Shown here: one piece after another, positions 6,206 through 30,586 of the stretch
How the letters are laid out: each line of letters starts with the position of its first letter
How positions within the stretch are numbered: the first letter of the stretch is position 1
Assembly: GCF_014138605.1 (NCBI RefSeq)
Contig: NZ_JACJHX010000008.1
Coordinates: 155,933-187,932 of the forward strand
DNA: 32,000 nt
Source of the DNA: Peribacillus huizhouensis
GTDB taxonomy: Bacteria; Bacillota; Bacilli; Bacillales; DSM-1321
Direction: 5' to 3'
Notes under the pieces: generated by a model
The model's database searches: none
What the model saw: only the letters and a program-made list of their open reading frames with translations
Told to the model about the DNA's origin: nothing
Program-made: the position numbers and the translations under genes

Positions 6206-6331
6206 CAAATTCATTAAAGGACTCGCTTTAAAGCTGCTTTAAAACCTTTTTTATAATCTTTTAATTAAAGTAGCGCTTCATATTTAAACTAGCTCTTTCA
6301 AATTAAGTAATAGTTTTTTATAGTAGATAGC

Positions 6332-8575: not shown

Positions 8576-8610
8576 AAAAAGAATAGAGGTTAACCCTCTA
8601 CTCTTTTTCT
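8576..8610. terminator. stem-loop terminator downstream of the recombinase pseudogene
   Basis: TAGAGG (8584-8589), loop TTAAC, then CCTCTA (8595-8600). An A-run lies upstream and a T-run downstream, so it is usable on either strand. Confidence 0.5.
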
Positions 8611-8745
8611 TCATATTTAGTAATATTATTATATCAGTAGTCTGAATCTCATTTCTTATATCCTATAAATCAATTTGAATTTATTAGTGATGGTCAACTG
8701 TTAATAAAACTCATTATTTTCATCGTAAATCTATTACATAGAAAC

Positions 8746-9360: not shown

Positions 9361-9421
9361 ACTTGATTAAATAAATTACAAATAAGCTACCGCTAGTTTT
9401 ACAGACTTATGGTAGCTTATT

Positions 9422-10417: not shown

Positions 10418-10432
10418 TTTCACTCCTAAACT

Positions 10433-11056: not shown

Positions 11057-11485
11057 TAGCTTCCATCTCCCATTTCTTTAGTTCAATTGTATATCCAATT
11101 ATTTACTAAAACAACTACATTACTAACTATCTAGCATTTATAGGGAACAAACGGTAACAGAAAAAAATTTTATTACCCCACCCCGTGCCGAATGTTCCCT
11201 TTAGTGACCAATAAAACATGGTAACGCTCGTTAACAAGCGAGAAAAATTCGAAAATTTATCAAGATACATACGAATCAAACTACTTTTCTATTACAATTT
11301 TCTAGAGAATATTACAAGTTTCGAACTTTGTTCGTATATCTCAAGATTATTATATTCTTTGATTTTTCATTAGGCATAGATTTATTCTTGGTTATACAAA
11401 TGTGCTAGTGGCAATTCTAAGGATTCTTCTCTTAATCACCTAAACTCCCCATATAAATAGTACATTATAATCAACTAATATTTTT

Positions 11486-12958
11486 TTATTCAATAAACGG
11501 CTGTTCGTGTAATAATGCTACTAAAGTGCTCCCCTTCACCCAAACGTTTTGACGATACATCGCAATGTTATTTATCGTCACCGGCTTAATAGTTGAATCT
11601 TTTCCTGAGCCTCGAATAAATATGTCGTAATCTTTTGATTTTGGAAAATTAACAGACGTTTTCAATGTACCCGATTTATTTATTTGGGGTTTTCCATCCT
11701 TTCCATATTCAATTTCGTCTCGTAATTCGTTGTAATGAATTAAACGTCTTACTTCAAGCCATACTTGCTGCAAGTCTTGTTCAATTATTGAATCTGGAAA
11801 TACAAATCGTTTAAATCCTTGAAATTTGTTATCTAATAACTTCGCATCTGAGGACGGCTCCTCAAATAAAATAAATAATAATTGCTGTAATTTAAACGCT
11901 TGATACACCGCGGATTGTTCAAAAGTTGTATTCACTTCTGTCCACTCCTCAAAGTCGATAGGAAATAGTTTCGTATCTTCTGTACGTGTACCATTTTTCG
12001 TCATCGTCAAGGTTTTCGGTAAAAGCCCAATTTTATGAAACAACTCAATTTTACTTAGCTTTTTTGCTTTTCCTCCAAACATGCGCACTATAATTTGCTC
12101 CGCGATAGATTTTGATACATCATTTTTTTTATTTAGTTTTATCGGAATTTGTAACTCATCCATTAGCTCACGAATCGTTTTCCCACGATGCGACTTGGTT
12201 ATTTGCTTTAACTTTTCATCAATTTGTGCAAACGATGTATAACTTTCCGTTAATTGCTCTAGCTTTTGACCGAAATGATTTTGCACAATCGTTGAAACGG
12301 TAGTACGCTTTAAACGGAAACGTGGTCGGTTCGGCCATTTCGGTGCGATATCAATTAGCATTAACTGCTTGCGCAATTCAGAAGAAATGCTGTGATATAG
12401 CTTCTCAGGCTTGGAGTAATTTTGCTGTAAGAATTCAATAAATGTTCGAACAAGTTCCCAGTCGTTTTGAAGCGTTTTTCTATCCTCTTCTGAAAAAGTA
12501 TGGAAATGATAATCCTCAATAATGAAGTTGGCATATTCAAGAGCCGGTACTGTTTGTTCTGCTGCGTAATGATAGTAAACTAGCAATAAATTCTGAAGCT
12601 TATGCCAAAAATTTGAGCTTTCAAAGTACTCCTCCACAATTCGTTCCGGCGAAACAGCCGTAATCGACATCGGCTCCTTCGCCTCAAATTCATGCTCACT
12701 TTTCTTTTTTGGTTTACGAATACCAGTTGTTTTCAGCTCAACAGGGACTCCATCTACAAGTAAATCAGCCTCTTGTTTCGAATCTGCAGGGTAACCTAGC
12801 ACAGATTGTTCAATGACATCACCTGCGATTCCTGTAATTTTAGGTGAAATACGCGCACGGTCAAAAACTCGATTTTTATCAACTTCTCCTAACGATTTCC
12901 CTACAACATTATCCAAGATTTGATGCAACTGAGACTTTTTAAAAACATGTCCAGCCAT
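11486..12958 (-). CDS. Sau3AI/MutH-family type II restriction endonuclease
   Basis: The N-terminus GKSLGEVDKN..ITGIAGDVIEQSVLGYPADSKQEADLLVDGVPVELKTTG fits the MutH/Sau3AI G..G..E..LG....D...(E-x-K) catalytic pattern. Length is 490 aa from ATG 12958 (AAGGAGTG 6 nt upstream), about the length I recall for R.Sau3AI. The track GTG at 12967 abuts the RBS. Confidence 0.85.
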   Translation of the reverse strand: MAGHVFKKSQLHQILDNVVGKSLGEVDKNRVFDRARISPKITGIAGDVIEQSVLGYPADSKQEADLLVDGVPVELKTTGIRKPKKKSEHEFEAKEPMSITAVSPERIVEEYFESSNFWHKLQNLLLVYYHYAAEQTVPALEYANFIIEDYHFHTFSEEDRKTLQNDWELVRTFIEFLQQNYSKPEKLYHSISSELRKQLMLIDIAPKWPNRPRFRLKRTTVSTIVQNHFGQKLEQLTESYTSFAQIDEKLKQITKSHRGKTIRELMDELQIPIKLNKKNDVSKSIAEQIIVRMFGGKAKKLSKIELFHKIGLLPKTLTMTKNGTRTEDTKLFPIDFEEWTEVNTTFEQSAVYQAFKLQQLLFILFEEPSSDAKLLDNKFQGFKRFVFPDSIIEQDLQQVWLEVRRLIHYNELRDEIEYGKDGKPQINKSGTLKTSVNFPKSKDYDIFIRGSGKDSTIKPVTINNIAMYRQNVWVKGSTLVALLHEQPFIE

Positions 12959-13178
12959 GTAACTCACTCCTTTTTAGTCTAGATATCTTATCAAAAAGAA
13001 AGACACCTTTTTAACACACATAATTAAATACAGTCCCATAAATTCAATTAAAATATCGTTTTGTTCTCGCTATTTTATTTTCGATACAATATTTCTTCAT
13101 AAGTCGTATAAAATACCCTCGATTATATATAGCTGCATTCACTTTTAAGTAATCTAATATTATCCGTATTGTATACGT

Positions 13179-13775
13179 CTACCTAAATCTCCGATATTTC
13201 GTTATTAATGTGACCCATCTTTCAATTGCATTTTTATTGTAAATTTTAATGATACCCTTGCTATTAATATTAGCCTTGTATTCTAAATTTTGAGGAATAC
13301 TTAGATTAGCAAAAGTCTCCAAAGCCGTATAACCAAATACAATTGCAACTTGTACGGTTTCTATGAAATTATACATTACCCTTAGATTTCATAATTATTG
13401 ATTCATTACGGCTCATATCCCCAAAATCTTCTAAACGATTTACAGCATCTAGGTTTATCTCTTTCTTATAAATTTCTTTAGCATTCAATTATACTTTGTT
13501 TGCAACTGATAATAGTATCCCAACATTATTAGGAGCATAGTAGTCAATCGTCTTTATTCTACCGTTTATGCTTGTTTGAAATTCAAAAGTTTCACCTCTT
13601 GTAGTACCATAGAGCCTGTCTCTCCATATAGAGCATTATACTTATAACAATTAGGTTTATTGGCTCGTATGTCAAAAGATGTATAGTTCTTTGGGTTTCT
13701 TGTAATAACTAAAGACTCTTTACCATTCTTGGTTTCATTTTGTTTTTTGGGGGGATTTTTTCTTTTTGTTATCAA
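13179..13775 (-). pseudogene. decayed gene remnants (several frames), possibly HEPN-like
   Basis: Protein-like pieces occur in different frames. These are ..NALYGETGSMV / LYGTTRGETFEFQTSINGRIKTIDYYAPNNVGILLSVANKV* / LNAKEIYKKEINLDAVNRLEDFGDMSRNESIIMKSKGNV* / MYNFIETVQVAIVFGYTALETFANLSIP... At least two frameshifts and one stop are present. The family call is weak. Confidence 0.35.
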
Positions 13776-14562
13776 AATTCCCTCCCACCTGCTGAAATTC
13801 TATTTCTCTTTTCTTATTTTCAAAAATAATATCTAACCTCTCTACCCAATTCATACCTAAATGAGCATTTAGTAGGACGTTAAGAGCTTCATAAGACCAT
13901 ATTTGAATTCTTTCATCATAATTCCTTAATTTATCGTTGACATAGCCTGTACAAAAGATAACTCCTCTATTTACCTTGTCATTAATAATTGTAAAACCTA
14001 GACTTCGGACATCATTGATTGTTAACTTAGTAGTTCTATATAATTTACATTCAACGTATACTTTTTCGTTCCCATCTGGTCTCTTGATAGACGCCATTAT
14101 ATCTTTTCCTCCATCACGGGTTGCAGGAGTCCAAGCAGTTTGGTAACCCATCCTTCTATACAATTCTTCTATTAACCATTCAAATTCAGTAGGTTTCAAT
14201 TTCGCCAACTTTTCTAATGGATTTTCGAAATAGATAAACTTTTCCATTATGATTTCCGCACACTGTTCAATTCCAGTATTCCTATCGTCTGGTATACTCG
14301 GCTCAGAAATAATGTAATTCTCAAGTGCTATAATTGCTTTATATGGTCGATAGGGTAAAAATTCCAAAATCCAAGTTAATCCTTCCCATGCTTCCTGTCT
14401 ATTTTCAATTCTATGATACAGTTCTATTTTTGGGTTGTTACCAATGATGGTATTAGTATTAGACTCAGAGTTAGCCTGACTCATAAGGTTAATATCCTCG
14501 TAAGTTCTTATATCTAATTCTCTAGAAAAAGGAACTAGTAAACATCTTAATAAGTCTTTCAC
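13735..14562 (-). CDS. Mrr-cat (type IV restriction endonuclease-like) domain protein with unknown N-terminal domain
   Basis: The C-terminal half PTEFEWLIEELYRRMGYQTAWTPATRDGGKDIMAS..KVYVECKLYRTTKLTINDVRSLGFTI..NRGVIFCTGYV matches the Mrr_cat pattern (FE..V..L...GY.....DGG.D......QCK.y). The start is ambiguous: GTG 14562 or ATG 14484 (the latter has GAGGA upstream). Confidence 0.8.
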   Translation of the reverse strand: MKDLLRCLLVPFSRELDIRTYEDINLMSQANSESNTNTIIGNNPKIELYHRIENRQEAWEGLTWILEFLPYRPYKAIIALENYIISEPSIPDDRNTGIEQCAEIIMEKFIYFENPLEKLAKLKPTEFEWLIEELYRRMGYQTAWTPATRDGGKDIMASIKRPDGNEKVYVECKLYRTTKLTINDVRSLGFTIINDKVNRGVIFCTGYVNDKLRNYDERIQIWSYEALNVLLNAHLGMNWVERLDIIFENKKREIEFQQVGGNFDNKKKKSPQKTK

Positions 14563-15117
14563 TTCTTATACTGACCTATTATGAATTCTTTCTAGTTAAT
14601 CATCTAGCCACTCCCTGTCCCTGTAAGAAATCATACAAAAGGGAACAACCAATTCATTACTATCAGAAACTAGAGAGAACCATTCATCAAAACTAGTGTA
14701 ATTATCACTGTAGTACAAACAAACACCTCCAATAGAAATCAGGTAGTACTTCAGTATTATAAATAGGATAATTATACCATGATAATTTATTTTGGGAACA
14801 GAGTATTTTATAATGTACTTCATTCCTGTAGACTGGAAAAGATTTCGGCAGAATGACACTTTGTTTTAGGAGGTGGTAAGTCGTTTTAACAGTCTAAGGC
14901 GGTCAAAACTTCACAAATAAAAAAAGCCCTTCCTGCTTAGCACAGAAAAGCACCTTTTTCGTTGAAAAAGACTAACCAGTGATATTTGCAATAGAAGAAA
15001 AGTGACTGACCCAACAGCCCTCCACCTTCCATTTGTAAATGTATTCCATTTAATTTGAAATATTGTATACTGTTAGTAAGGACTTCCAAATGTGGTATAG
15101 AGGAGTGTTAACTAAAT

Positions 15118-16389
15118 ATGAATGACAGAATTAATGGATGGACAACATCAAGAGACTCTGCTGTTTGCGATGACATTGAATTGAAAAAGACATCTACTAC
15201 TAGACTTATTTTCAGACCTGAAATAGTGAACAATATTAATAATCCTGAGGCATCTGTTAGAGGTTGCTTCATCTTTCAAATGAAAGGTAAAAATGCCTCT
15301 TGGGAAGATTTTAAAGAGTTAGAGTTAAATAAATTAAAAGTTGAGGAATGGATTAAGCTAGAGCTAAACTCTGAGGCTATGCTGCCTCTTACTAGAGAAA
15401 TTCAGAAACATTATGCAGTACATGAAAAGTATGGGGTTATGTAAGGAGGATTTCACCTTTTCAAGAATAGCCCTGATATTGAGAGACTGATTGAAATTTA
15501 TGAGAGTAACACTAATCTATTTACTCAATTAATGAAGGATGATATGAGTGAAGCATTAGAGAAAACATTAGAATTGATTGTTACAAATGATAATCCAGAT
15601 AAAATAATTGACAGGCTTAAAAACCTACAGGAGAAAGATTTAGACCAACTTAATACTCTTGTTGGGATAGCTAACCTAAAAAAAGTATTGTCTGTTTGGG
15701 ATGGCAACAAACTCAATAATACCTCTGAGAAGTTTTGACAAAGTGTCTTGAAAGAAAATACTTGGATTTTGAGTCAGATTTTCTCTAATCCAACCGTTTT
15801 GATAAATGATGAGGCTTATGTAGGAGGAAAGACTATCAACAATGATAGTGGCAAGCTAATTGATTTATTATATGCGAATCCCTTCTCAAAAGATGCTATA
15901 CTTATTGAAATTAAGACTTCCTCAACTCCTCTAATTACTCCCAATGAGTACAGAACAGGAGTATATTCAGTACATAAGGACTTGATGGGAGCAGTTACAC
16001 AAGTATTAACTTATAAGACAAGCCTACAGAGGGAGTATCTAAATACCAAAGGGTTTTGATGTTCCATTTTAGTATATCTAGGAAGTTACCTGTACTCCGC
16101 AAGGTATGGACTCTTTAGAGAGACCTTTGTATCTCATATTTCACTTCATAGCGTGGGGGCGGTAAAGCTTGGACACTCTAATCCACTTCAAATCATTTAT
16201 CTTAGTGATAAGCACCTGATAGATATTCCTTATTTTTGCATACGTAAAATTCATGTTAATAGAGCGGATAATTTAAATAATCGTACGGCGCATATTATTT
16301 ATGATTGCGCGGCTGTAACACTAACAAACGTTCATTTGAGTAAACCGCCCATTTATAAAATGAATTATCTAGTTACAATTCATATTTAA
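15118..16389 (+). pseudogene. sduA: Shedu (DUF4263) nuclease gene interrupted by three in-frame stop codons
   Basis: ORFs 15118..15444, 15532..15738, 15748..16059 and 16153..16389 all sit in frame 1. The frame is broken only by TAA 15442-15444, TGA 15736-15738 and TGA 16057-16059. The core LKENTWILSQIF..GKLIDLLYANPFSKDAILIEIKTSSTPL..YSVHKDLMGAVTQVLTYK fits the DUF4263 PD-(D/E)xK pattern. Whether the tail beyond 16059 is Shedu-derived is uncertain. Confidence 0.75.
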
Positions 16390-16520
16390 TTGGTATCAGA
16401 TAACGAGGAATGGTTTTATCCATATAGTCACCTAATGTAGGAATTTAAACTTTTATTCAGTGATTACTCTTCATAACAACGATTATCCTGTCCGTCTACC
16501 TCTTTATCTAGACACCCTAC

Positions 16521-17027
16521 TTAATCCTTTGTCCACTGATTTTGCTCTTCTCCATTCATCATTGACCATTCATATTGGTCGATGAAACTGTTACCATCCA
16601 AATCATTACCTTGAGCTTTTTTTTCTCCCTGTTGAGACTGAGATGCCTGCTCTTGTTGTTGTCTCTGTTGTGCTTTCCGTTCGGATGCTTTTCTTTCTGC
16701 TTCTTGCTGTTGAGCAATAGGTTGTTTTTCAGTAATTTCCTCTTGACGCTGTTTCTCTGCGACATCCGATTGTCGTTTTTGCTCTGCTAACTCAACTTGA
16801 CGTTTGCGTTCTTCTTCACGCTTTTCAGCTTCTCTTTTAGCTACTATTAAATCTTGCTTTTCATTTTCAAGTTGTTCTATTTCAGATTTTTCTGGTGTTT
16901 GTTTTATATGAGATTGATTTTCAGTTTCGCTTGTAGTCTTTTCTTCTTTTTCTTTACCTTCCTCACAAGCAGGTATAATTAAACTTAAAGATAATAAAAC
17001 ACTGCCAACTAACAATGATTTCTTCAT
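16521..17027 (-). CDS. lipoprotein with E/K/Q-rich low-complexity region and C-terminal EF-hand-like loop
   Basis: Signal peptide MKKSLLVGSVLLSLSLIIPAC ends in a lipobox Cys, followed by a long charged repeat-like region. DLDGNSFIDQYE (16569-16604) matches the 12-residue EF-hand loop (D-x-D-x-N-x-x-I-D-x-x-E). Confidence 0.8.
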   Translation of the reverse strand: MKKSLLVGSVLLSLSLIIPACEEGKEKEEKTTSETENQSHIKQTPEKSEIEQLENEKQDLIVAKREAEKREEERKRQVELAEQKRQSDVAEKQRQEEITEKQPIAQQQEAERKASERKAQQRQQQEQASQSQQGEKKAQGNDLDGNSFIDQYEWSMMNGEEQNQWTKD

Positions 17028-17067
17028 TGTATTCTCCCTTTGTTTAAATTCAATATATTATTCGATA

Positions 17068-17649
17068 TTATTCTTTTTCTACAGTTAAAGTAAAAATTCC
17101 ATTATCAGGATGTTTATCATCAGCTGTATACTCAGCCGTATACTTAACACCTTTATACGAATACGTTTTTTTAGTTCCATCAACTAAGAACTCTTCTCCA
17201 AGTCCTAAGTGACCGTATGCAATTTCTTTTACCATTTCTATTGAAATATTAGGGTTTGCTATTTGGATTAATTTAACGCCAGCGACAAGTGTATTATAAT
17301 CGCTATTCTGTTTTTCAGGGCTAATAAATCCAACAACTGATACAGAGCGAAATTTCTTAGACTTCATACTTTTTGTTTCTGCTCCAACAAAAAGATAACT
17401 TCGAACCTCTCCCTTATAAAACATACCTGGGTAACTTTCTTCTTTTCCCTTAAATTCAACTATACTTAAGTTCCGATGATTCGGATTCATCGCTTTCTCC
17501 CACTTTTTCTTAAAATTTTTCCATCCCTTATCAAACAATGTCTTCTCTTCTTGTTTTGCTTCGGCTACTATTACCGAGTTTGTTGTACAGACATTAATGA
17601 CAGTCGATAATCCAAAAACTATAATTATACTCAACATCATCTTTTTCAT
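17068..17649 (-). CDS. secreted protein/lipoprotein, paralog of 2737-3648 C-terminal domain
   Basis: ATG at 17649 has GGGAGAGGA upstream. The signal peptide is MKKMMLSIIIVFGLSTVINVC. The C-terminus LIQIANPN..HLGLGEEFLVDGTKKTYSYKGVKYTAEYTADD..GIFTLTVEKE parallels LILIADPK..YLGLSNGKIVEEKTLSYTQNGIIYKAEYEDN..PTLTVSVEKE in the other gene. Confidence 0.75.
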   Translation of the reverse strand: MKKMMLSIIIVFGLSTVINVCTTNSVIVAEAKQEEKTLFDKGWKNFKKKWEKAMNPNHRNLSIVEFKGKEESYPGMFYKGEVRSYLFVGAETKSMKSKKFRSVSVVGFISPEKQNSDYNTLVAGVKLIQIANPNISIEMVKEIAYGHLGLGEEFLVDGTKKTYSYKGVKYTAEYTADDKHPDNGIFTLTVEKE

Positions 17650-18120
17650 AATGTCCTCTCCCTTGTTTAATCTATATAAGGTACTGAATGTACTTAAACT
17701 CTGCATTTATTTCTTTCTGTAATAAATCCTCTATTCTTTTAGAATTCATTCAAATTCCCTTTATAAGTAAGTAATACCACACGCGGATTTTCTTCCTATT
17801 TTTTGGTTCTTTTTATACTTTTGATTTGCATTCTTGTTAAATTCGTCATCTTATCTTCTATTACTTCTAACAAGTCCTTACTCTGCTATTTTTTAAACAA
17901 ACCGCATTAGCTAACTTCTTTCCTTTTCTACCTTTCTATCACTACATATGGTGTCTTCAATTACTAATCACAACAATCAGACTAAGTGTCTTAAAAGAAA
18001 TGTCTGTTACGAGAGATTACCTCCAAACGATGAACAATCCTCAAAAAATGCCTTTTAGTTCTTTTTGTAAAGAATTTATGGTCATTTCTTTACTATTAAG
18101 TTAATAAAATCACAATTTTA

Positions 18121-18705
18121 TCAACTAACAAAGTTGTTCTTTTCACTATTTCCCATCTCTTCATCAATATCACTAAATTCCACTACCCCCTCGTCTAAAG
18201 CAGGTCTCCGAAACTGCTTAAAAAAAGTGTATTCAACTAAAGGTGTGTTATAATCTACCCCTAGAGGATGTTTTGGTTGATTGTTTGCAATCTCTCGAAA
18301 ACAGTACAGAGGGAAGTACGAAAACAAAGATTTAAGAGAATCATCCATATAGCGTTTTTGAATTTTACCATGTTCACCCCAAGCTACAACTATCTTATCT
18401 GCATTCTGTAAGGCATTCTGTAAGAAACTATGATTATGTACTCCAACCATTTTTTTATAATCTTTTACTTTTTTGAGGTCTGTTGGGTAAGTTGCTCGAA
18501 AAGCAAACAGATTAACAATTTGTAGAGAACCATATCCCCATTTTTTTGCAAATTCAATACATACCTTAGTTGTTTGGTCATCTCCTTCATCATCTGCTGT
18601 ACTTGGATTCAGCAAAACAAAGACAACTCTTTGAGCATTTGATTCATCCCATTCCCTTATTAAGGAATAACGATACTCCCCATCTATAACTGCTTCTCTT
18701 CTCAT
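18121..18705 (-). CDS. DUF1643 domain protein (uracil-DNA-glycosylase-like fold family)
   Basis: YRYSLIREWDESNAQRVVFVLLNPSTADDEGDDQTTKVCIEFAKKWGYGSLQIVNLFAFRATYPTDL matches the DUF1643 pattern (YRY.L.R.W...NPStAd...D.T...c..fa...GyG....NLfa.R). The likely start is ATG 18705 (GAGGGAG 8 nt upstream) rather than the track GTG at 18714. Confidence 0.8.
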   Translation of the reverse strand: MRREAVIDGEYRYSLIREWDESNAQRVVFVLLNPSTADDEGDDQTTKVCIEFAKKWGYGSLQIVNLFAFRATYPTDLKKVKDYKKMVGVHNHSFLQNALQNADKIVVAWGEHGKIQKRYMDDSLKSLFSYFPLYCFREIANNQPKHPLGVDYNTPLVEYTFFKQFRRPALDEGVVEFSDIDEEMGNSEKNNFVS

Positions 18706-18927
18706 ACTTTTCACTCCCTCATTAGACTTTAGACTTCAATATAATCAAGAAAAGTTTTGATAAAAACTCTAGGTTAATCTCAATGTTATTTAATGTTATC
18801 CACGTTTTCCTAATACACTAAATTTCAGGATTATTTTACCATGAATATCAGTGTACAACTGTCATGTTTTGTCGAGTAAAATCAATCCATTTAACAATAT
18901 TTTTTACCACTTTTTTAGAATATATAG

Positions 18928-19092
18928 GAAGGAGCGGGAAAACGTAGTTTCAACCGCAAGTGAAGAAAAATCTAATGAGGAGAAAAAGGTTAGATTGCGA
19001 GGATTGCAGCGCTACTAACTTTATTGAATAACCTTTCCCTTGAAATGGTGATATGGTTCCCCTGCTAAAGAAACGCACTTACTTAATAGTGA
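18928..19092. repeat. copy of modular dispersed repeat (left boundary of resolvase/GIY-YIG/HNH cassette)
   Basis: Modules in order: GGAGCGGGAAAACGTAGTTTCAACCGCAAGTG (X), CGAGGATTGCAGCGCTAC (X-like), then TTGAAATGGTGATATGGTTCCCCTGCTAAAGAAACGCACTTACTTAATAGTGAG (Y). The stretch 18995-19092 aligns in direct orientation with 22603-22695. Confidence 0.6.
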
Positions 19093-19443
19093 GTTTTCTC
19101 TTTGAAAATCTATGGTGTACTGTTCAACTTTCTTTTCCTATCTGCTAAAAATACAAATAAGTTTCCCTCCATGTATAAGGAAAACCCATTGCAAGGGAAC
19201 TATATTCTCTGTTTAGCTCTACTGAAATTCAACTACTTGAAGTATTCATTTTCAATGACTATTTGCAATGTGGTAAAGGTAGGGTTATTCGATTTTTTAT
19301 AGTACTTGTATCGGAAGTATTAAAAATCTATGGTGTTTAAGTCCACCTACTACACCCATTATCAGTAACGAGGTAACTCCAAAATGTTGAAATACACCCC
19401 CATACTAAAGATAAATCCTTCCTTTAAAAATTGAAAACCCAAA

Positions 19444-19470
19444 GAAAAAAAGGATTCCTGTATGGAATCC
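19444..19470 (-). terminator. intrinsic terminator of the resolvase/small-ORF transcript
   Basis: GGATTCC (19452-19458) pairs with GGAATCC (19464-19470) around a 5-nt loop. On the minus strand it is followed by a run of T (the A-run at 19444-19451). Confidence 0.65.
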
Positions 19471-19484
19471 CAATTTATATATAA

Positions 19485-19676
19485 CTATTTTGTTAGTTCT
19501 TCTTTCCATTCTTTTAAATCTGATATTACTTCTCTAAAATCTTTATCAAACGGATACTTTTCTGCAAGTTTATCTGAATGCGTTGTTTCAACTTTTTCCC
19601 ATTCATCGCTTAATTTAATCCATGCTGCAATTGCTTCGTCTAACGCTTTTTTAAACTCATCCATTATACCTTTCAC
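19485..19676 (-). CDS. small acidic hypothetical protein co-transcribed with the resolvase
   Basis: A 59-63 aa helical-looking ORF (DEFKKALDEAIAAWIKLSDEWEKVE..). GGTGAAAGG lies just upstream of the internal ATG at 19664. It sits between the resolvase stop and the terminator. Confidence 0.5.
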   Translation of the reverse strand: MKGIMDEFKKALDEAIAAWIKLSDEWEKVETTHSDKLAEKYPFDKDFREVISDLKEWKEELTK

Positions 19677-19740
19677 CTACTTTTATTTATAGTATTATAC
19701 GTAAAATTCTACCATTTTTATTTATTAAGGTAAAACCATT

Positions 19741-20310
19741 TTAACATTCTCTATCCTTTACTTCTTGTTCATTCTTTCTTCTAATCAGAGTTCTCTTCGT
19801 GATACCAGTCAGCGCTTCAACTTCCTTGTATGTATGATTTTCAAGAAGCTTTAAGGCATGTTGTACTTGTTGCTTAGAATGTTTTCTTGGTCTACCTTCA
19901 CGAAAATCGTCTCGCTGTTTTGCAATTACTTTTCCTTCTTGAGTACGTTCAACTATTAGATTTCTTTCCATCTCAGCTACTGCAAGAAGCGTTTGTAAGA
20001 AAAATCTCCCAATTGTAGTGTTTTCCAATAACCCTACATTCAACACATGAACCTTTACATCCTTTTGGAATAGGCTCTCGATTATCTCAATACCTTCCTT
20101 AGTATTACGAGCAAGGCGGTCTAATTTTGTCACCACCAAAGTATCACCCGCTTGCATTTCCCTGAGTAACTTCTTAAACTGCGGTCTATCTGTTTTTGTA
20201 CCTGTAAACTTCTCTTCAAAGATGACTTCGCATTCTTCTTTTTTGAGTTCTTCATTTTGTACTGTTAAATCTTGTGCCACTGTGGATACCCTTGCATATC
20301 CATATTTCAT
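19741..20310 (-). CDS. serine recombinase (resolvase/invertase family)
   Basis: Motifs present: [44 protein letters not shown], and a C-terminal HTH ([18 protein letters not shown]). GAGGGGAAA lies upstream of the ATG. Confidence 0.92.
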
Positions 20311-20330
20311 GTCATTTTCCCCTCTAATTT

Positions 20331-20418
20331 ATGTCACTATGTTTTGTCACCATTCAATACCTTGATTTTACTACATCACAAAAATGGTGTCAATACTATT
20401 AGGATGTGACACCATTTT
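20331..20418. promoter_or_regulatory. res-like recombinase binding region upstream of the resolvase gene
   Basis: A perfect 12-bp inverted repeat, AAAATGGTGTCA (20381-20392) and TGACACCATTTT (20407-20418), has a 14-bp spacer. Extra half-site-like copies are TGTCACCATT (20346-20355) and TGTCACTATG (20333-20342). The position matches res sites of small serine resolvases. Confidence 0.5.
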
Positions 20419-20492
20419 AATAATAAGAAGTTTATAATTATCTTATAGATTTAAAAACGTTTTTAAATTAACTATATCACCTTAATAAACGT

Positions 20493-20517
20493 AAAAAAGG
20501 ACTGTTTTTTTACAGTC
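20493..20517 (-). terminator. intrinsic terminator after the GIY-YIG gene
   Basis: GACTGT (20500-20505) pairs with ACAGTC (20512-20517). On the minus strand it is followed by CTTTTTTAC. Confidence 0.6.
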
Positions 20518-20592
20518 TCAAAAGTATACTTTTAAAAACATTATTCTAAAGAAAATTTTAAAACACCCTCCATAAGGGCGCTTAAAATAAAG

Positions 20593-21363
20593 TTACTTAT
20601 TCCACAACATATAAGCACCATTTATCTCAATTACATTTCCTTCTGTAGCAAACTGTTCTAAATCTTTCCTTGACTTTTCATGTGCTTCCTTATAATAATC
20701 ACACTTTTTATGCATACCTATATGTTTTTCTTTTTCAGAAAGTTGCACAGTTTCAAAAGAGACCTTTTTCAATAGCTCATGATATTTTTCTCTAATAAGG
20801 ATTTCTGCTTCTTTTAATTCTATCAACTCTTGTTGGAGTTCTTCAATTCTGTCATAGATTTCAGTAGGAAGTTTTCTTGTACTTAGCATTTTATCTATCT
20901 TTTCAGTCATCATCTCTATCACAAAACTGTTAGTAGACTTGGATAGTTTGATATCATTGTTTAATACTGGTTCAAGAGTATATATAAAATATCTTTCTAA
21001 AACAGCAATTTTTCCAGGGTCATCTTTTGCTAAATCGTCACAAAAGAAGACCAGGAGTTCTTTAGCGTTAAATAATTCAAATAGATGTTTTTTTTCATGT
21101 TTACTATGCCTTTCGAATAAACCCTTTTGACCGTTGGCTAAACCTACATAAATAACCTTGTCATTATTATCTTTAACAAAGTAAAAACCAATCCGTTTAG
21201 GTAGGCCTAAATGAACAGACTTACTCCATGGATATACATCTTCATGCTGTGAGAAATCGAATGAAAGTGTTTTAATATTTGCTGATTGCTCCTTATTCAA
21301 ATTATTCATAAAGTTTCCCGAGACTTGTATTTCAATTTTTCCATTGACCTTGGTTGTCGACAT
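20593..21363 (-). CDS. GIY-YIG nuclease-domain protein with C-terminal coiled-coil-like region
   Basis: IGFYFVKDNNDKVIYVGLANGQKGLFERHSKH gives GFY, a 10-aa gap, then YVG, then Arg. VLERYFIYTLEPVLNND supplies the Glu and Asn. The C-terminus EELQQELIELKEAEILIREKYHELLKK is heptad-like. The N-terminal ~50 aa are unassigned. Confidence 0.7.
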   Translation of the reverse strand: MSTTKVNGKIEIQVSGNFMNNLNKEQSANIKTLSFDFSQHEDVYPWSKSVHLGLPKRIGFYFVKDNNDKVIYVGLANGQKGLFERHSKHEKKHLFELFNAKELLVFFCDDLAKDDPGKIAVLERYFIYTLEPVLNNDIKLSKSTNSFVIEMMTEKIDKMLSTRKLPTEIYDRIEELQQELIELKEAEILIREKYHELLKKVSFETVQLSEKEKHIGMHKKCDYYKEAHEKSRKDLEQFATEGNVIEINGAYMLWNK

Positions 21364-21429
21364 ATAATTAAATTCTCCTTAAAATGGAAATTATCCCCAA
21401 TTTATCATTACAAATTTATATTAGAATAA

Positions 21430-21473
21430 AAAATAAAAATAAAGTATTCCTACTACTTTATTTTTATTTTTTT
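21430..21473. terminator. long AT-only hairpin between the HNH and GIY-YIG genes
   Basis: AAAATAAAAATAAAGTA (21430-21446) pairs with TACTTTATTTTTATTTT (21454-21470) around loop TTCCTAC. Flanking A/T runs are present on both sides. Confidence 0.6.
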
Positions 21474-21479
21474 AGAAAC

Positions 21480-22298
21480 TTATTCATTCCAAAAAGGAAC
21501 ATTTACTGAACTAGTATCAGTGTTTCGGTCACCTTTTGTAGTATTACATTTTTCACAAAGTAACTGCATATTTGAAGCGTCATTACTTCCAAAGATATTT
21601 AGTGGCACTATATGGTCAATATGTATTTGATTTTGATTTCTTATTAAATTAGACAAATCACGTCGACAAATAGTACACGTTCCTTTATCTCTATAAAAAA
21701 CCGCTGATTTTAACCATTCAGGAAAATATTGACGTTTCAATCTATCTTTAGAAGTAACAAACTGAGGATACTTCTCTTTAATATTATCTATTTCACCTTC
21801 AATAAAATCAGCCAATTCCACATGAAAATCATGCAAAAATTTTCTGTCTTGGAAAATAAACTGAAATGCTGAATGTATAATTAGTTCATTTACTTTATCT
21901 AAATTATCAGATATATATTCAATCCATGTTTCTATTATTGGCTTACACTTACAATCAAAATGTCCATTGTTATCATCACATTGTTCAAAATCAGGACTTT
22001 GTATATTAGTATTAGGATACAATTTTGCATCTTTTAACATTCTTACCATTAGGTTATATCCTTCTGACATATCATCTAAGTCCTCAAATATACTTTTTAT
22101 CCCTTTTAATCTATACTGTATATCAGCTAAATAATAATGTACAGCAGTTGTTTTATTAGGCTTTAATACACTTTCAATAATTTCATCTCTATATTCGAAA
22201 AATGAACTTTGAGCTACATCCCGATAAAAGTAATCTACTGCTATTCCTGCTAGACTTAATCCTGAAGTTAGAGCTAAATGTTCTTCTTTAAGAGTCAT
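21480..22298 (-). CDS. HNH endonuclease-domain protein with unknown ~200-aa N-terminal domain
   Basis: The C-terminus is GTCTICRRDLSNLIRNQNQIHIDHIVPLNIFGSNDASNMQLLCEKCNTTKGDR (Cys pair, H-N-H core). ATG at 22298 has AAGGAG 8 nt upstream; the track TTG at 22304 is too close to the RBS. Confidence 0.85.
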   Translation of the reverse strand: MTLKEEHLALTSGLSLAGIAVDYFYRDVAQSSFFEYRDEIIESVLKPNKTTAVHYYLADIQYRLKGIKSIFEDLDDMSEGYNLMVRMLKDAKLYPNTNIQSPDFEQCDDNNGHFDCKCKPIIETWIEYISDNLDKVNELIIHSAFQFIFQDRKFLHDFHVELADFIEGEIDNIKEKYPQFVTSKDRLKRQYFPEWLKSAVFYRDKGTCTICRRDLSNLIRNQNQIHIDHIVPLNIFGSNDASNMQLLCEKCNTTKGDRNTDTSSVNVPFWNE

Positions 22299-22602
22299 TC
22301 CCAATTCTCCTTATAATTTGAATAGTTATTATATGCACCAAATTATAACAGTTTTTGTATAATCAACATATAACCGGATAACTAAACTTTAACCTCAAAA
22401 ACTAATTTTTTCACGGCTATTTATAAACATATATTAATATCTCAACTTTTGATTCTGCTTGATTATTAGCGAATACATATCTTTTTCTACTTTTACCTGA
22501 ATTGTTTGTAACTACAAATATATTAACTTTCCACAAATTCTTAAGTATCTTTTCTTCTTGTCTTTTTAGAAAATTAGAAAACTCGTACTTATTATATATC
22601 AC

Positions 22603-22695
22603 CTTGCGGGTGCGGAACTGCTCCCCTCTTTATACACTCACACTTCCTTCGTAATGGTGATATGGTAGCCCATCTAAATAAACACACCCACTATA
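22603..22695. repeat. copy of modular dispersed repeat (right boundary of cassette, about 230 bp upstream of the integrase)
   Basis: CTTGCGGGTGCGGAACTGCTCCCC (X-like) is followed by TCGTAATGGTGATATGGTAGCCCATCTAAATAAACACACCCACTATATTA (Y). It is in direct orientation relative to 18995-19092. Confidence 0.6.
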
Positions 22696-22921
22696 TTATA
22701 TAGTAATTCGTGAGAAAATGACTTTGTCTCTTAACCTTATGATAAATACTTCCTCACAGGAGAATATTTGTTATGTTGCTTATTGATATGCTCTGTTTCC
22801 ATCTACAAATACCTACGTGTCGTTTTTATCATAATGGTCAACAACCCTACATTTCATGGTAAAATATAGGTAAGGAAACCTTCACAGACTAAGGGTAACT
22901 TCCAAGGAGGTTGTTCTTACT

Positions 22922-24052
22922 GTGACAGGTAGTATCAATAAAAATAAACAAACAGGAAAATGGGATTTTATATTTAATGGTGGCATAGACCCCATGACTG
23001 GTAAACGGAAACAAATCAGAAGACGAGGATTTGAATCAAAACGTCATGCCCTTGATGAAATGACAAAGCTAAGAGCAGAAGTATTAGAAGACGAGTTCCT
23101 AGACCTGACAAAAATGACTTACGAACGCTATATGGAGGAGTGGTTTCAAGAAAGGAAGAATACACTACAAAAGACTACTTTTGAAATTCATTTTATCTAT
23201 TATAGAAATGTCATAAAACCAAAACTGGGTCAGTTAAAAGTACAGCAGATTGCACCAATACAAATTCAAAAGTTTATCAATGAATTAGTAAACGACACGA
23301 GCTATTCAGCAAACACCATCCATCTAATTTTCCGAATTGTTAGTGCTTCATTAAAAAAAGCAAAAGTTTTGAAACTAATAAAGCAAAACCCTACTGATGG
23401 AATCACTCTTCCGAAGATTAAGAAAAGAGAAATGAGTATTTGGTCGCTCAAACAAGTCAATCATTTCATCAGCGAAGCTAGTAATGTTAATAGGTTGACT
23501 CGCTGTTACATCGGATTTCTAATTTCTATCTTTACAGGAATGAGACAAGGAGAGATTTTAGGTATGCGTTGGAAAGATGTAGATTTTGAAACACAGACAA
23601 TATTTGTTCGGCAAACATTAACACAAAATGCTGAAATAAAATCGGGTGCAAAGAATGAAGCGAGCGTCCGTTCCATACACATCCCTAGTAAATTAGTAGA
23701 CGAGTTAAGGACTTACAGGAAACATGTCTTACAGGAAAAGTTGACTCATGGGCAAAGTTACTATGACAACGATTTAGTTGTTTGTACAAGGGCCGGTAAA
23801 CCCATGATACCGAGAAACTTCCGCAAAGAGTTCTATAATTTAGTAGAGAAGGTCGGCTTACCTAAGATTCGTTTTCACGACCTTAGACATACTCATGCTA
23901 CTATCTTGATTCAACAAAATGTAAATGTGAAGCTTATCTCGGAACGGCTAGGTCACTCAGATATTGAAACAACACTTAACACATATAGCCACGTTCTTCC
24001 AGACATGCAGAAATCTGTATCAGATAAATTAGATAAAATCATTGGAATGTGA
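22922..24052 (+). CDS. int: tyrosine recombinase, phage-integrase family
   Basis: GTG start with AAGGAGG upstream. The SAM-like N-domain is followed by the catalytic region: GMRQGEILGMRWKDVD (Arg), IRFHDLRHTHATILI (H-x-x-R), LGHSDIETTLNTYSHV (catalytic Tyr). Confidence 0.92.
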   Translation: MTGSINKNKQTGKWDFIFNGGIDPMTGKRKQIRRRGFESKRHALDEMTKLRAEVLEDEFLDLTKMTYERYMEEWFQERKNTLQKTTFEIHFIYYRNVIKPKLGQLKVQQIAPIQIQKFINELVNDTSYSANTIHLIFRIVSASLKKAKVLKLIKQNPTDGITLPKIKKREMSIWSLKQVNHFISEASNVNRLTRCYIGFLISIFTGMRQGEILGMRWKDVDFETQTIFVRQTLTQNAEIKSGAKNEASVRSIHIPSKLVDELRTYRKHVLQEKLTHGQSYYDNDLVVCTRAGKPMIPRNFRKEFYNLVEKVGLPKIRFHDLRHTHATILIQQNVNVKLISERLGHSDIETTLNTYSHVLPDMQKSVSDKLDKIIGM

Positions 24053-24089
24053 CCAAATTAGTGACCGCTACACATCGACATTGCCTTAA

Positions 24090-24647
24090 ATGCAGTCATA
24101 TCAATGTTTCAGCTACCTTCACCCCTACATGCCTGAAGAAGGAATGGTTGAAACTGGCGAACTAAAAATCCATCAAGCATCACATGCTCGTTATTTCGAA
24201 GACTTCTTGAAATTCGTTGATTATGGTGAATCAATGCCAGAAATTATGAAAGCACAAGTCATGAATATGGTGCATGAGCATGTTCAAGAAACATACGCTG
24301 ATAACAGCGAAGAGTTGCAGCAATTTGAACAGGCAATGGAAGTTTGGGAAGCAAGTGAAAAACGGGAGATTCAAGAGCGTCTCGATACGCATCAAGTGAT
24401 TGAAGCCACAGCACAAATTGTTGAACATACGCCTGATGCAGAAATGCGAATGACGCTTGGCAATACTTCTGTGAAAGGATTGCTTTCCGATTTCGGCGAA
24501 AATGTCCATTTAGGGAAAATTAACGGACGGTATGTTTTGCTTGTGGATGCAGAGTCGATTGTGTTTGAAAAAGGCGTCTCACCGATTGAATTTCATAAAC
24601 CAGAAGATGTCATGTCGATATTGGAGCGGATCAGGCAGAAGGAATAA
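24090..24647 (+). CDS. acidic hypothetical protein, visibly GC-richer than surroundings
   Basis: A 185-aa ORF directly after int with protein-like composition (EELQQFEQAMEVWEASEKREIQERL). No convincing RBS precedes any of the first three Met codons, so the start is uncertain. It is followed by a terminator. Confidence 0.55.
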   Translation: MQSYQCFSYLHPYMPEEGMVETGELKIHQASHARYFEDFLKFVDYGESMPEIMKAQVMNMVHEHVQETYADNSEELQQFEQAMEVWEASEKREIQERLDTHQVIEATAQIVEHTPDAEMRMTLGNTSVKGLLSDFGENVHLGKINGRYVLLVDAESIVFEKGVSPIEFHKPEDVMSILERIRQKE

Positions 24648-26710: not shown

Positions 26711-28181
26711 TCAATTTAACCTAATATTTTCAGCTTCAATTAAAACTGATGTGGCTGTTTGATTTATCAAAGATGCAACTATATTACCATTAAAATCTGA
26801 TAGACTCACTTTAGAGGATATCAGCCCTGCCTGAACACTTAATGCCCCCCTCAGCACTTTGAATCCTGGAATCAAGCCCGCTAATGTTTGAATTAACGGC
26901 TCCAACCTGACCATCTACATAATTTACAGAAGCTTTAAGAGCCACTGTTCCGGCAACTACGTTTATGGATGCCTCTACAGATTCAATTTGACCGTCAAAA
27001 TAATTATAAGCTTCATCTATGCCAGTATCCGTGTCAGCTTTAGATTCAATTAAAACACCTTCTGCCCTCACGTCTATTTGCGATATAGCCTCTTCTACTT
27101 CGCCGTCAAGTCTCAACCTGCATGTTAATATTTTCATTTGTCTGCTCAAACTTTGATCGGTATTCTTTTTTATTCTCATCAATTTCAATTCGAGCTACTG
27201 TAAGCACATCTGTATAGTTACGCTTTTTATTACCTAGAGTGACAACAGGACTTTTATTGCTAAAAGGATACCATTTTCGAGCGATCACCCTTGTTTTAAA
27301 GTCAATATTCATTGGCTCGTATATGGTCCATTGCAGATCACCTAAACCAACATCAAACCCAAGCTGGGTTACTTCTAATTCAAACCTGATCTCTAGAACA
27401 TCATTCAACTCTTGTTTAATTCGTTAAATCATAGATTCAGTAATCGTGTAACGATCATCTCTGACAGGTTCTGCGTGACGTTTTCCGTATACCTCTACCA
27501 TAGACGATCTGCACGTTACCTCTAATCCATTACCACCAAAACCTTTTATTACTGTACATAGATTGGTAGTATCCACTGTTTTTATGAGTGTTTTGTCATT
27601 ATGTTTGTACGTAAATTGATGATCCGTCTCCATGCCAATTTTTCTTATAAATCTTGATGTGCATATTAGGCATAATCTTAATTTCACATTCAAGTTTAGA
27701 ACAAGCATCCCAATTTAATGAAAGAACATTATTTTCACTGAAATTAGCGAATAATGCATAATCCGTTACATCAACAGATTCGAAAGTCCAACCGGTACCC
27801 GATAACACGAAAGAAAAAATATCATTTGCATTCCTTGTACCACCAATAATCCCATAAACTTGATGTTCGATTAGATCCAAATAGACATGTTGCGCTGCAA
27901 CTGACTTTTGATTTCGGATCTCTGTCATATTTTTAACTCTAAATTCGTGTCCATCTAATTCGACTGTGCTTTCTTCCTAGTGGATACGAGTGAGCATTAT
28001 TGGCAGAAAAAATAGAGGGAAATGAATTTGAAAAATCTCCGTTTACCTCTTCGTTTATTTCACAATTTTTTATGTTCGATAATAATTCTTTATCCCCTGC
28101 TAGATTTTTAACTACAAGCAATAGCATCGCCTCCTTTCGGTATAATAAAAGATCCCTTATTGGACTTGTGTAATTAATCAA
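26711..28181 (-). pseudogene. prophage tail protein (minor structural protein / tail endopeptidase-type N-terminus) broken by multiple frameshifts
   Basis: Six overlapping ORF pieces lie on one strand: 27939..28181, 27599..27928, 27424..27708, 27106..27408, 26811..27188 and 26711..26914. The N-terminal piece LLVVKNLAGDKELLSNIKNCEINEEVNGDFSNSF resembles siphovirus tail-tip N-terminal regions. The later pieces SINVVAGTVALKASVNYVDGQV and LSDFNGNIVASLINQTATSVLIEAENIRLN look fibre-like. No neighbouring tail genes are present. Confidence 0.7.
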
Positions 28182-29311: not shown

Positions 29312-30131
29312 TTAAACTAATAGACAGTTTTCACCGACCGAGGGAATACCTTGTCCACTACTCGACCCCAAAACCAAGTTTGTTCCATGAACTAAATCAA
29401 CTGGATTATCAACAAATACCGAGTAAATATATCCACTTTCAAGTTTCATAGCTCCGATATGCCATAAACCACCTTGCCTTGGGAGTGATGATTGCGAAAT
29501 CAACTTGAAAGTCGTTCCGTCACTCGATTCAGTGTAGGCAAACGCTCCTCAGTATTGACCGATTGCTATAAATTTATTTGTTTTTACTTTAAAAACTTGT
29601 GGCGAAAGGGAGGCCGCTGACGCTCCTACTATTGGACATTCAATCTCTTCTGACCAGGTTTTTCCATCACGCGTTGTCTTTTTAACAAGTTTTGATGAAC
29701 CACTTATTACAGGGCGATAATAACAAACCAATTGCTTAGCTTGACGGTCATAGGTTAACGTTGGGTCACTGTTATATCCTTTTCCAGGAGCAGTTGTAAC
29801 AGGATTTGTTAATCCAACAGGTACAATTCTAGTTTTTGCCGTCGTGTGAACAATAGATAGATGGATTTTCATGCTGATTATTGCCATTAGGATAAGGAGT
29901 AATCGCCATCCAATATTTATATCCTGCAAAACCTACTGGAAGATAGACCACAAAATGATGACAAACTTCTCCTGATCCGTCATAAGTTGTAAGATTGATT
30001 TTTTGTAACTCACCTTTAAATTTAACCTTATGTTGATTATTAATGGTCGGTTGTATATTTTCTATAACAACAGGAATTGGCTCTGAAGCATCATTCCTTA
30101 CTTTTATGTTTGTAAATAACTGTTAACTCAT
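29312..30131 (-). pseudogene. BNR/sialidase-like beta-propeller protein gene (phage-associated type), decayed
   Basis: ATG at 30131 is followed by TAA at codon 3 (30123-30125). Then comes ..FAGYKYWMAITPYPNGNNQHENPSIYCSHDGKN, a frameshift near 29840-29930, TTRDGKTWSEE (Asp-box/BNR motif), an in-frame TGA at 29549-29551, and then GAFAYTESSDGTTF (a second Asp-box-like motif). Confidence 0.65.
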
Positions 30132-30586
30132 TATAAATTGTTTGCTTTTAATATATTATTTCTATGCATCTCTTTGAGCTCAATAGGCATTTCTTTATCC
30201 AATAACCATTCAGCTTGCTGTTTTTGAAATTTCAACAAGACATCCTGTGGCAATTCTAAATCAACAATATCCGATAACTTAGTAACTCTCAGTGCCACCA
30301 TAAGAGCAATTAGCTGAGTTTTATTGAGACTAACACCTGTCTTACCGTTGACCAATTGAGAAATAGTACCTACCCTCATACCCGTCATCGACGCAAGGTC
30401 CTTTTGAGTTATGTTTCTCTCATTCAATAACTCATCAATTTTATAGACAAAATTAGCATTTGAAAGGATACTAGCAGTATCAGTTACAACTTGATTCATA
30501 AGTTTATGTGATTCTCCAATGATGGCTGAAACTTTTTCTTTGCGCAATTCTGATATCCTCCTAGAAATATTAAAAAGACAAGACAT
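30131..30586 (-). CDS. XRE-family HTH transcriptional regulator
   Basis: IDELLNERNITQKDLASMTGMRVGTISQLVNGKTGVSLNKTQLIALMVAL is a typical XRE HTH. Its stop overlaps the ATG of the downstream BNR-like pseudogene (TAATG). The true start is uncertain: 30586 or the internal Met at codon 30. Confidence 0.75.
   Translation of the reverse strand: MSCLFNISRRISELRKEKVSAIIGESHKLMNQVVTDTASILSNANFVYKIDELLNERNITQKDLASMTGMRVGTISQLVNGKTGVSLNKTQLIALMVALRVTKLSDIVDLELPQDVLLKFQKQQAEWLLDKEMPIELKEMHRNNILKANNL

Follow-up and report, generated by a model that had tools for sequence, protein, structure and literature searches.

The window analysed here, a 32,000-nt stretch of the Peribacillus huizhouensis genome (assembly GCF_014138605.1, contig NZ_JACJHX010000008.1, forward-strand positions 155,933 to 187,932), contains the integrase-proximal part, at least 24 kb long, of an integrative island with anti-phage defence genes, the insertion target of which is a DUF3900/DUF3898 gene. 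Next to the integrase lies a 3.6-kb cassette encoding a resolvase, a GIY-YIG-like protein and an HNH protein, and bracketed by direct repeats that the original prediction took for attachment (att) sites duplicated by accretive integration. We find that these repeats are diverged copies of a non-coding element of approximately 190 nt, here called E, and not integrase attachment sites; E is an undescribed non-coding boundary element marking the accretion of the island. To judge from its sequence and position, E marks the border between the cargo and the integrase in this island family. We hold, with moderate confidence, that it is a recombination-prone boundary where E-bearing DNA joins the island.

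The direct repeats as such are real. Positions 18995-19092 and 22603-22695 align in direct orientation at approximately 67-75% identity: a repeat search yields a 65-nt ungapped block (19019-19083 versus 22628-22692, 74% identity), the MAFFT alignment extends to approximately 95 nt, from TTGCG through CAC..ACT, and in the ungapped register 62 of 93 positions are identical. The 14-mer AATGGTGATATGGT in the middle of the repeat is the same in both and, with up to two mismatches allowed, has five matches in the window versus 0.23 expected. The repeats are found at an E-value of 4.8e-4 when the window is compared with itself by BLAST, and both match the profile of the copies from other genomes (E-values 7e-40 for the left and 1e-21 for the right one); hence, their similarity is far above chance.

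Together with its flank, E spans approximately 215 nt. The window contains the following copies.

5897-6084, plus strand: third copy of E, w3 (nhmmer E-value 5e-40).
18927-19103, plus strand: left copy of E, wL (nhmmer E-value 7e-40).
22568-22714, plus strand: right, integrase-proximal copy of E, wR (nhmmer E-value 1e-21).

The element has a 5' box, AGGAG..GAAAACG.AGTTTCAACCGCAAGTG, and occurs in two alternative 5' subtypes; further conserved blocks are AGTGCTACT and TGGTGATAAGCACCCCC, and the 3' end is formed by a hairpin, AAGAAACACACCCA...TGGGTGTGTTTCTT, with T-runs on both strands. In wL, the 5' box reads AGGAGCGGGAAAACGTAGTTTCAACCGCAAGTG, positions 19044-19057 form the core AATGGTGATATGGT, and the terminator hairpin, at approximately 19068-19103, is degenerate. 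wR, with its core at 22653-22666, has lost the 3' arm of the hairpin, and the conserved integrase-upstream region follows up to 22921, this right flank being 84-91% identical to the integrase-upstream regions of five loci from related genomes (L012, L016, L039, L041 and L042; loci are denoted by L numbers throughout). Approximately 80 nt past w3, at 6165-6200, there is a second 5' box (AAGGAGCAGAAAACGAGGTTGCAGCCGCTAGT), and thus w3 has 5'-box sequence on both sides. A weak partial fourth copy at 19262-19345, consisting of the 3' end of E and the first bases of the integrase-upstream flank, is situated past the left repeat and ahead of the first gene of the cassette; here TTAAAAATCTATGGTGT at 19320 repeats TTGAAAATCTATGGTGT at 19102.

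BLAST of the repeats against the related loci gave the first homologues of E, just upstream of the L012 integrase and at two places in L007. The profile search yielded 14 strong copies in nine loci, plus a duplicate of one of them in L040, and all copies are on the strand of the integrase. The E-bearing islands belong to related Peribacillus and Metabacillus, with the following copies outside the window.

L012, L042 and L043: a proximal copy only.
L007, L039 and L041: two copies each, a proximal and a distal one.
L016: two copies, the first proximal and the second beyond the island.
L037: a single copy, 3.7 kb away from the integrase.

Among the ten close loci, that is, those with enough upstream sequence and an integrase at least 80% identical, eight (the window, L007, L012, L016, L039, L041, L042 and L043) have a proximal E approximately 190-350 bp upstream of the integrase, and such a copy is absent from more distant relatives and from metagenomic integrase loci (integrase at most 74% identical). 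By local BLAST, wL is approximately 72-79% identical to the L007 copies, versus 77% coding identity of the linked integrases; since the two values are comparable, E is probably under selection. The hairpin, whose stem is preserved by changes on both sides in the distal copy of L039, is a plausible bidirectional terminator, which in L039 ends a convergent gene for an Xer-like recombinase, and it probably shields the integrase from transcription coming from the cargo.

A search for a conventional identity of E gave negative results. According to the original prediction, the repeat could be the 3' end of an RNA gene, but ARAGORN detected no transfer RNA or transfer-messenger RNA, and Rfam yielded no match at the gathering score and only chance-level ones up to an E-value of 5. 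A structured RNA was rejected, as fold z-scores of single copies vary from -1.2 to +0.5 and full elements average approximately -1.7 on either strand; in the RNAalifold prediction, the terminal hairpin is the sole conserved pairing in E. Both strands of the repeats share tempting peptides; a coding relic was rejected, the mismatches being even over codon positions (8, 10 and 13 of 31) and the indels not being multiples of three. The 95-codon ATG-started frame over w3, within the open reading frame (ORF) 5831-6199, is not conserved in the other copies. Also rejected were E as a DUF1643 fragment (the sole match is weak, with an E-value of 1.7, and contains a stop) and E as the 5' part of the target gene. 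Neither by eye nor by scan did we see a convincing pair of sigma-70 promoter boxes in E. A generic genome-wide repeat, too, was rejected: the 22-base repeat pattern is absent from 185,579 species-representative genomes, which evidently omit this genome, viral contigs have no match to E or chance matches alone, and the metagenomic loci lack E. The region has no plasmid or phage match, and E itself shows no similarity to 72,556 plasmids from PLSDB, where conjugative elements of Peribacillus are likely to be few, or to 50,697 phages.

The copies of E within one island belong to different lineages and do not stem from a duplication at one insertion. The nearest relatives of the window copies are in other genomes: wL is 72% identical to the distal copy of L007 (and 69% to the proximal copy of L012), and w3 is 74% identical to the proximal copy of L042. 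As wL and wR share only 60% identity, compared to 72% between wL and the distal L007 copy, they did not arise by one duplication. The proximal and distal copies of L039 are of different subtypes, and, more generally, E is mosaic, with 5' subtypes and 3' flanks reassorted among genomes. In the 75 nt to the left of the core, wL is 89% identical to the proximal copy of L012; to the right of the core, its best match to any copy is only 67%, and that half looks decayed, not exchanged. Around the family-conserved TGGTGATA, wL and wR have six additional bases in common that are missing from the other copies.

The position of the cassette is occupied in the window and vacant in some related genomes. 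The gene preceding wL in the window is

18121-18714, minus strand: DUF1643 gene, the last gene of the preceding block (PF07799, E-value 9e-39),

with 82% DNA identity to L007 8854-9394. P. butanolivorans (L007) and P. simplex (L039/L040) have DUF1643, then E and then the integrase, with nothing between them, and in the window the order is DUF1643, wL, the 3.6-kb block, wR, integrase. Hence, the former arrangement represents the empty state of this exact position in related species. The block thus stands as a gained unit at a polymorphic site beside the integrase of a stacked island, whereas accretion through the repeats as att sites does not. Nor is excision as a circle supported, as the identical stretch is just 14 nt long, a second res site is missing, and the repeats offer the integrase no att-like core.

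The att site is at the other end of the integrase gene.

22922-24052, plus strand: tyrosine integrase, the island's own, intact, at the right end of the island (Pfam: arm-binding, SAM-like and catalytic domains).
24090-24647, plus strand: displaced 3' fragment of the target gene (Pfam: DUF3900 profile positions 175-253 plus DUF3898).
24118-24142, plus strand: right junction with the core region of attR; from CCCTACATGCCTGAAGAAGG onward, the sequence is homologous to the intact target gene.

The ORF 24090-24647 covers only the last third of DUF3900, plus DUF3898, and tblastn with the intact 356-aa target protein finds residues 179-356 in the window (94%). In every related locus, all of them fetched with the integrase protein as the query, the 3' part of the DUF3900/DUF3898 gene follows the integrase, starting from residue 166-184 or so of 356. 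An intact target gene is located 5.6-9 kb upstream in L010, L016 and L029, where homology between the left and the right side starts at CC(C/A)TACATGCC, corresponding to approximately 24122 in the window; the intact target gene of L031 was also compared with the window for placing the junction. L043 and L044 contain whole islands, each ending at an intact DUF3900/DUF3898 gene. Thus, the island is situated to the left of approximately 24122 and runs past the window, its left end being outside the 32 kb, and the att core is not the repeat. The junction is downstream of the integrase, and the repeats, 227 bp and 3.8 kb upstream of the integrase, are not its duplicated att sites; the att core CCCTACATGCC has no resemblance to the E core TGGTGATA.

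Two GTGACC direct repeats (GTGACCAAATTAGTGACC) occur at 24049-24066, between the stop codon of the integrase and the att core; both are kept in L016 and L029, and the first one alone in L010. These may be putative arm-type binding sites of the integrase. Target-gene 3' fragments are found in series in L010 (14140-14229) and L025 (4880-5389, 6710-6853 and 9729-10078), which is direct evidence that integration at the DUF3900/DUF3898 att site occurred repeatedly elsewhere in the island family. Only one DUF3900 fragment is present in the window, with no internal target-gene fragment across 24 kb. An independent short-read assembly of the same strain (SRR12224765; L001 and L002) breaks inside the DUF3900 fragment, at approximately 24183-24617, which is what a second similar copy, for example an island-borne 3' part at the left end, would cause. 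A literature search yielded no description of the DUF3900/DUF3898 gene itself; no separate search was made for its use as a target.

The island reads as at least three stacked blocks of cargo, with a copy of E at the integrase side of each block.

Up to 5318: block 1, followed by w3.
Approximately 6100-18714: block 2, followed by wL.
19485-22602: block 3, the cassette of the original prediction, followed by wR and the integrase.

In three genomes (the window, L007 and L039), the block to the right of the distal E ends with DUF1643 beside the next E. Such conserved block ends with variable cargo suggest a discrete element inserting at E. The left-hand E copies of block 2 in the window and of the corresponding blocks in L007 and L039 have a common 60-nt right flank. 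In L039 this flank overlaps the 3' end of an intact minus-strand gene for an Xer-like tyrosine recombinase (1549-2502). In the window, the flank of w3 (6111-6158) appears to be a coding remnant of the C-terminal tail of an Xer-like recombinase, also on the minus strand, and there is a further remnant at 6359-6472. By themselves, the tblastn matches of the L039 recombinase are weak, being 87.5% over 16 aa at 6158-6111 (E-value 0.38) and 34% over 38 aa at 6472-6359 (E-value 0.50); residues 329-351 of the window integrase match 6460-6392 with an E-value of 0.004. We read them as Xer-like remnants because these weak matches fall in the flank common to the distal copies of L007 and L039. No adjacent Xer-like remnant was found at the distal copy of L007. 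None of the six distal E copies has an adjacent integrase coding remnant or target-gene fragment, nor is there an integrase remnant adjacent to the left repeat, wL; the lack of remnants at the distal copies argues against simple integrase-mediated accretion combined with random deletion.

In the explanation that we favour, incoming DNA with its own E-like sequence would recombine in or next to the E of the resident island, and each block gained in this way would therefore add one more copy of E. The reaction would be either site-specific, catalysed by an Xer-like enzyme or conceivably by a resolvase, or driven by homology. For block 2, the likely agent would be the Xer-like tyrosine recombinase, whose gene abuts E in L039 and whose presumed remnants are found beside E in the window; for the 3.6-kb cassette, the small resolvase encoded by it would be the sole candidate enzyme.

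A number of observations weigh against E as a recombination-prone boundary. The block boundaries are not at one fixed nucleotide relative to E, wR starts at profile position 38 with the first 37 positions missing, the distal copy of L041 has no hairpin, and what looks like a breakpoint at the wL core may be mere decay of the hairpin half. In L037, a 3.5-kb block with SIR2/NB-ARC and TPR genes (6370-9911) ends approximately 90 nt upstream of the integrase, and it is flanked not by two E copies but by diverged pieces of the integrase-upstream region, overlapping by approximately 59 nt; this block has no recombinase, and such a pattern points to untidy recombination or deletion more than to a precise, site-specific reaction. 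As for the resolvase, enzymes of the resolvase/invertase type are not known to integrate DNA, and there is a single res-like site in the window. E has no plasmid, phage or Rfam match, no circular or empty-site junction was observed within the species, and the sample is small, comprising nine loci from one genus cluster.

The main rival explanation is plain tandem accretion by the island integrase at the DUF3900/DUF3898 att site, with E being a passive passenger. In this case, two or more related islands would have entered the site in succession, and later deletions would have cost them the inner integrase along with the att fragment and the 3' part of the gene that the island carried, leaving the integrase-upstream module of each as a direct repeat. 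The same orientation of all copies would follow automatically, tandem target-gene fragments do exist in L010 and L025, and the extent of the upstream region that is kept varies natively (L006, L008, L009 and L021). L037 agrees with such a history as well, since E there is followed by 160 nt of integrase-upstream sequence and then by another block with its own partial upstream region, the two overlapping pieces being diverged. Still, not one of the six distal copies retains an integrase or DUF3900 remnant, so that six clean deletions of approximately 1.8 kb or larger would be needed; the copies of class D abut the opposite-strand Xer-like gene instead, and the 24 kb of the window contain no internal target-gene fragment. 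We regard plain accretion as unlikely.

It is also unlikely, in our estimate, that E is a dedicated capture site, at which recombinase-carrying modules insert site-specifically just upstream of the integrase, regenerate E and stack. The enzymes in this case would be the Xer-like recombinase for block 2 and possibly the small serine resolvase for the 3.6-kb cassette.

Alternatively, E could act in cis in transfer or regulation and take no part in the insertion of blocks, its extra copies being by-products of island shuffling. Candidate functions would be an origin of transfer (oriT) for hitch-hiking on conjugative elements, a packaging site, and a small RNA or an operator controlling the integrase. 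Conservation at about the coding level, specific orientation and the location by the integrase in islands without other mobility genes would agree with such a site, as would a hairpin adjoining conserved blocks; islands composed of an integrase and oriT, with defence genes near oriT, are reported in a preprint (bioRxiv 10.64898/2026.01.13.699239). However, E resembles nothing among the 72,556 plasmids and 50,697 phages, has no Rfam match, and was not seen linked to a relaxase, and the terminator is its sole conserved RNA structure, with modest folding z-scores. We consider a purely cis-acting role rather improbable.

The content of the cassette agrees with the original prediction: a resolvase, a GIY-YIG-like protein and an HNH protein are encoded there, the integrase starts 227 bp to the right, and only minus-strand ORFs occur between the repeats.

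19485-19676, minus strand: small 63-aa ORF downstream of the resolvase (from the ORF list; a 59-aa gene in the independent assembly).
19741-20310, minus strand: small serine recombinase of the resolvase/invertase type (PF00239, E-value 1e-36; HTH_49, E-value 3e-13).
20345-20354, minus strand: extra half-site AATGGTGACA (by motif positions; the res-like site as a whole spans 20345-20417).
20382-20417, no strand assigned: res-like inverted repeat AAATGGTGTCA-N14-TGACACCATTT, read from the sequence upstream of the resolvase.
20593-21363, minus strand: 256-aa GIY-YIG-like nuclease, single-gene cargo (NCBI name of the identical protein; sub-threshold Pfam match).
21480-22304, minus strand: HNH endonuclease of about 270 aa (PF01844, E-value 3e-10; PF14279).
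22417-22602, minus strand: 61-aa ORF abutting the right repeat, a doubtful gene (from the ORF list; not called in the independent assembly).

The terminators and the res-like site expected from the original prediction are there as well: terminator-like hairpins are located at 19451-19471, after the small ORF and the resolvase, and at 20500-20517, after the GIY-YIG-like gene, and a perfect AT-rich 19-bp hairpin at 21428-21472 follows the HNH gene. The resolvase has an N-terminal catalytic domain and a C-terminal helix-turn-helix. The best Pfam match of the 256-aa protein is PF01541, yet below the threshold (E-value 0.031, 15 bits versus the cut-off of 22.6); by eye, it shows the motif pattern GFY-x10-YVG ... 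RxxxH ... E ... N, and the identical protein in NCBI is named 'GIY-YIG nuclease family protein'. Family searches with the 63-aa and 61-aa ORFs yielded no match. Homologues of the HNH protein occur in L043 and L044, in the same island family with different neighbours, the HNH endonuclease being a frequent cargo of this family. The GIY-YIG-like protein is rare, and elsewhere it is found alone in a groEL-linked satellite-like island and beside an AbrB-family gene. DNA homology of the cassette genes ends at gene borders. A conserved three-gene system was rejected, as the homologues of the HNH and GIY-YIG-like proteins have other neighbours; the cassette would rather be an assemblage of independent single-gene nuclease cargos and a resolvase, not a functional operon.

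If the encoded serine recombinase recognised the repeat cores, it might have inserted the block or be able to excise it. The core AATGGTGATA of wL and wR is one base off the half-site AATGGTGACA of the res-like site, the AA prefix of the core is specific to these two copies, and the resolvase gene is close to the left edge of the block, its 3' end pointing toward E, similarly to the Xer-like gene in block 2. Against this, the res sites of serine resolvases come as a directly repeated pair, each member having several inverted-repeat subsites to which resolvase dimers bind, and each repeat has one half-site-like 10-mer only, with no inverted partner, no three-subsite architecture and no second res site in the window; the match is just 8-9 bases long; the heptamer AATGGTG is over-represented in the window in general, with 13 occurrences; and this type of enzyme is not generally known to integrate DNA. 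A resolvase-driven cassette is therefore, in our view, very unlikely. Least credible of all, and close to being dismissed, is that the repeats are attL/attR-type duplicates of the site of the adjacent integrase, by which it could excise the cassette as a circle: direct repeats with an identical 14-mer core do surround a gene block 227 bp from an intact integrase, but the actual att site of this integrase family is found past the integrase, within the DUF3900/DUF3898 gene, the GTGACC repeats, putatively of the arm type, are between the integrase stop codon and the att core, outside E, the E core TGGTGATA is unlike the att core CCCTACATGCC, and the E copies, being 60-67% identical and from different lineages, are not products of one recombination event with a core shared with the empty target.

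The rest of the window agrees with an integrative defence island, that is, the cargo is dominated by anti-phage and restriction genes and differs among relatives, and in all related loci the integrase is at one island end, abutting the truncated target gene. The integrase protein is 100% identical to a P. huizhouensis protein and has many homologues in Bacillaceae at 60-95%. The cargo of the window includes genes for a C5 methylase, MutH-like and Mrr-like proteins, a NOV_C/DUF3427 protein, a fragmented Shedu and DUF1643 (Pfam, PADLOC); relatives carry SIR2/NB-ARC, MmeI, AbiTii, AIPR, Schlafen and TIR genes (gene tables of L037 and L039-L044). The Shedu (SduA) gene, 15118-16059 on the plus strand, is broken into an N-terminal ORF and a partial C-terminal ORF, and is probably an inactivated defence gene.

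Besides the cassette resolvase, the window contains two further resolvase genes, one of them broken. The gene at 8746-9360 (minus strand) is broken into two ORFs, which cover profile positions 5-106 and 107-144, and hence is probably a pseudogene; the one at 934-1548 (minus strand) is intact, its 5' end having 71% DNA identity to the cassette resolvase (1420-1540 versus 20209-20329). ATGGTGTCA occurs five times in the window, including sites inside two resolvase genes (1346 and 9081) and at 10409. AT-rich palindromes are found in intergenic regions of the first cargo block, at 5359-5426 (68 nt, 76% self-complementarity) and 2573-2613 (42 nt, 90%). To the right of the island, fragments of prophage-tail domains and an HTH repressor-like gene at 27106-27708 and 30131-30586 (minus strand) suggest a decayed prophage adjoining the target gene.

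Tandem accretion at att sites is known from cis-mobilizable and integrative and conjugative elements (CIME/ICE) of Streptococcus thermophilus and from tycheposon arrays of Prochlorococcus. The island described here resembles both in having an integrase in a fixed target gene, modular variable cargo and direct repeats between the modules. In those systems, however, the repeats are att or target fragments, whereas here they are a non-coding module 5' of the integrase; internal att or target fragments between units are lacking in the window and were found in L010 and L025 only. As in hotspot defence islands, the gene content behind the conserved integrase varies among strains, the window cargo comprising restriction, Shedu, Mrr, MutH-like, HNH and GIY-YIG genes; unlike in those islands, the cargo blocks are delimited by a specific conserved non-coding element.

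With integrons, the island shares its geometry: transcription of the integrase leads away from a site upstream of it, the cargo occupies the opposite strand, and the added units are delimited by repeats in the same orientation. Unlike in integrons, the integrase is of the phage type with an arm-binding domain, and it is no IntI, scoring 63 and 44 bits with the NCBIfam integron-integrase models versus cut-offs of 265 and 435; the units comprise several genes with their own promoters and terminators; and, while attC sites are imperfect palindromes defined by structure, E is conserved in sequence and has a terminal hairpin only. Finally, iOriT islands, as reported in the same preprint (bioRxiv 10.64898/2026.01.13.699239), carry an integrase and an origin of transfer only and have defence genes near oriT. 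The present island is similar in that it encodes an integrase but neither a relaxase nor mating functions, and has a conserved non-coding site with defence genes in the vicinity; on the other hand, no similarity of E to any plasmid sequence was found, and its role as oriT is pure conjecture.

How new modules are inserted into mosaic defence islands is mostly unexplained, and E offers a concrete, testable handle, resting on the orientation-specific copy at every block boundary, on the empty and filled states and on the recombinase genes beside some of the copies. Should E be a mere passenger, the finding would shrink to an ordinary composite island. If E were a dedicated capture site, the mobile island would house a nested, integron-like platform that takes up defence modules of several genes. 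More generally, if E is a recombination site, it would explain the build-up of anti-phage genes in these islands and provide a sequence tag for the boundaries of their modules.

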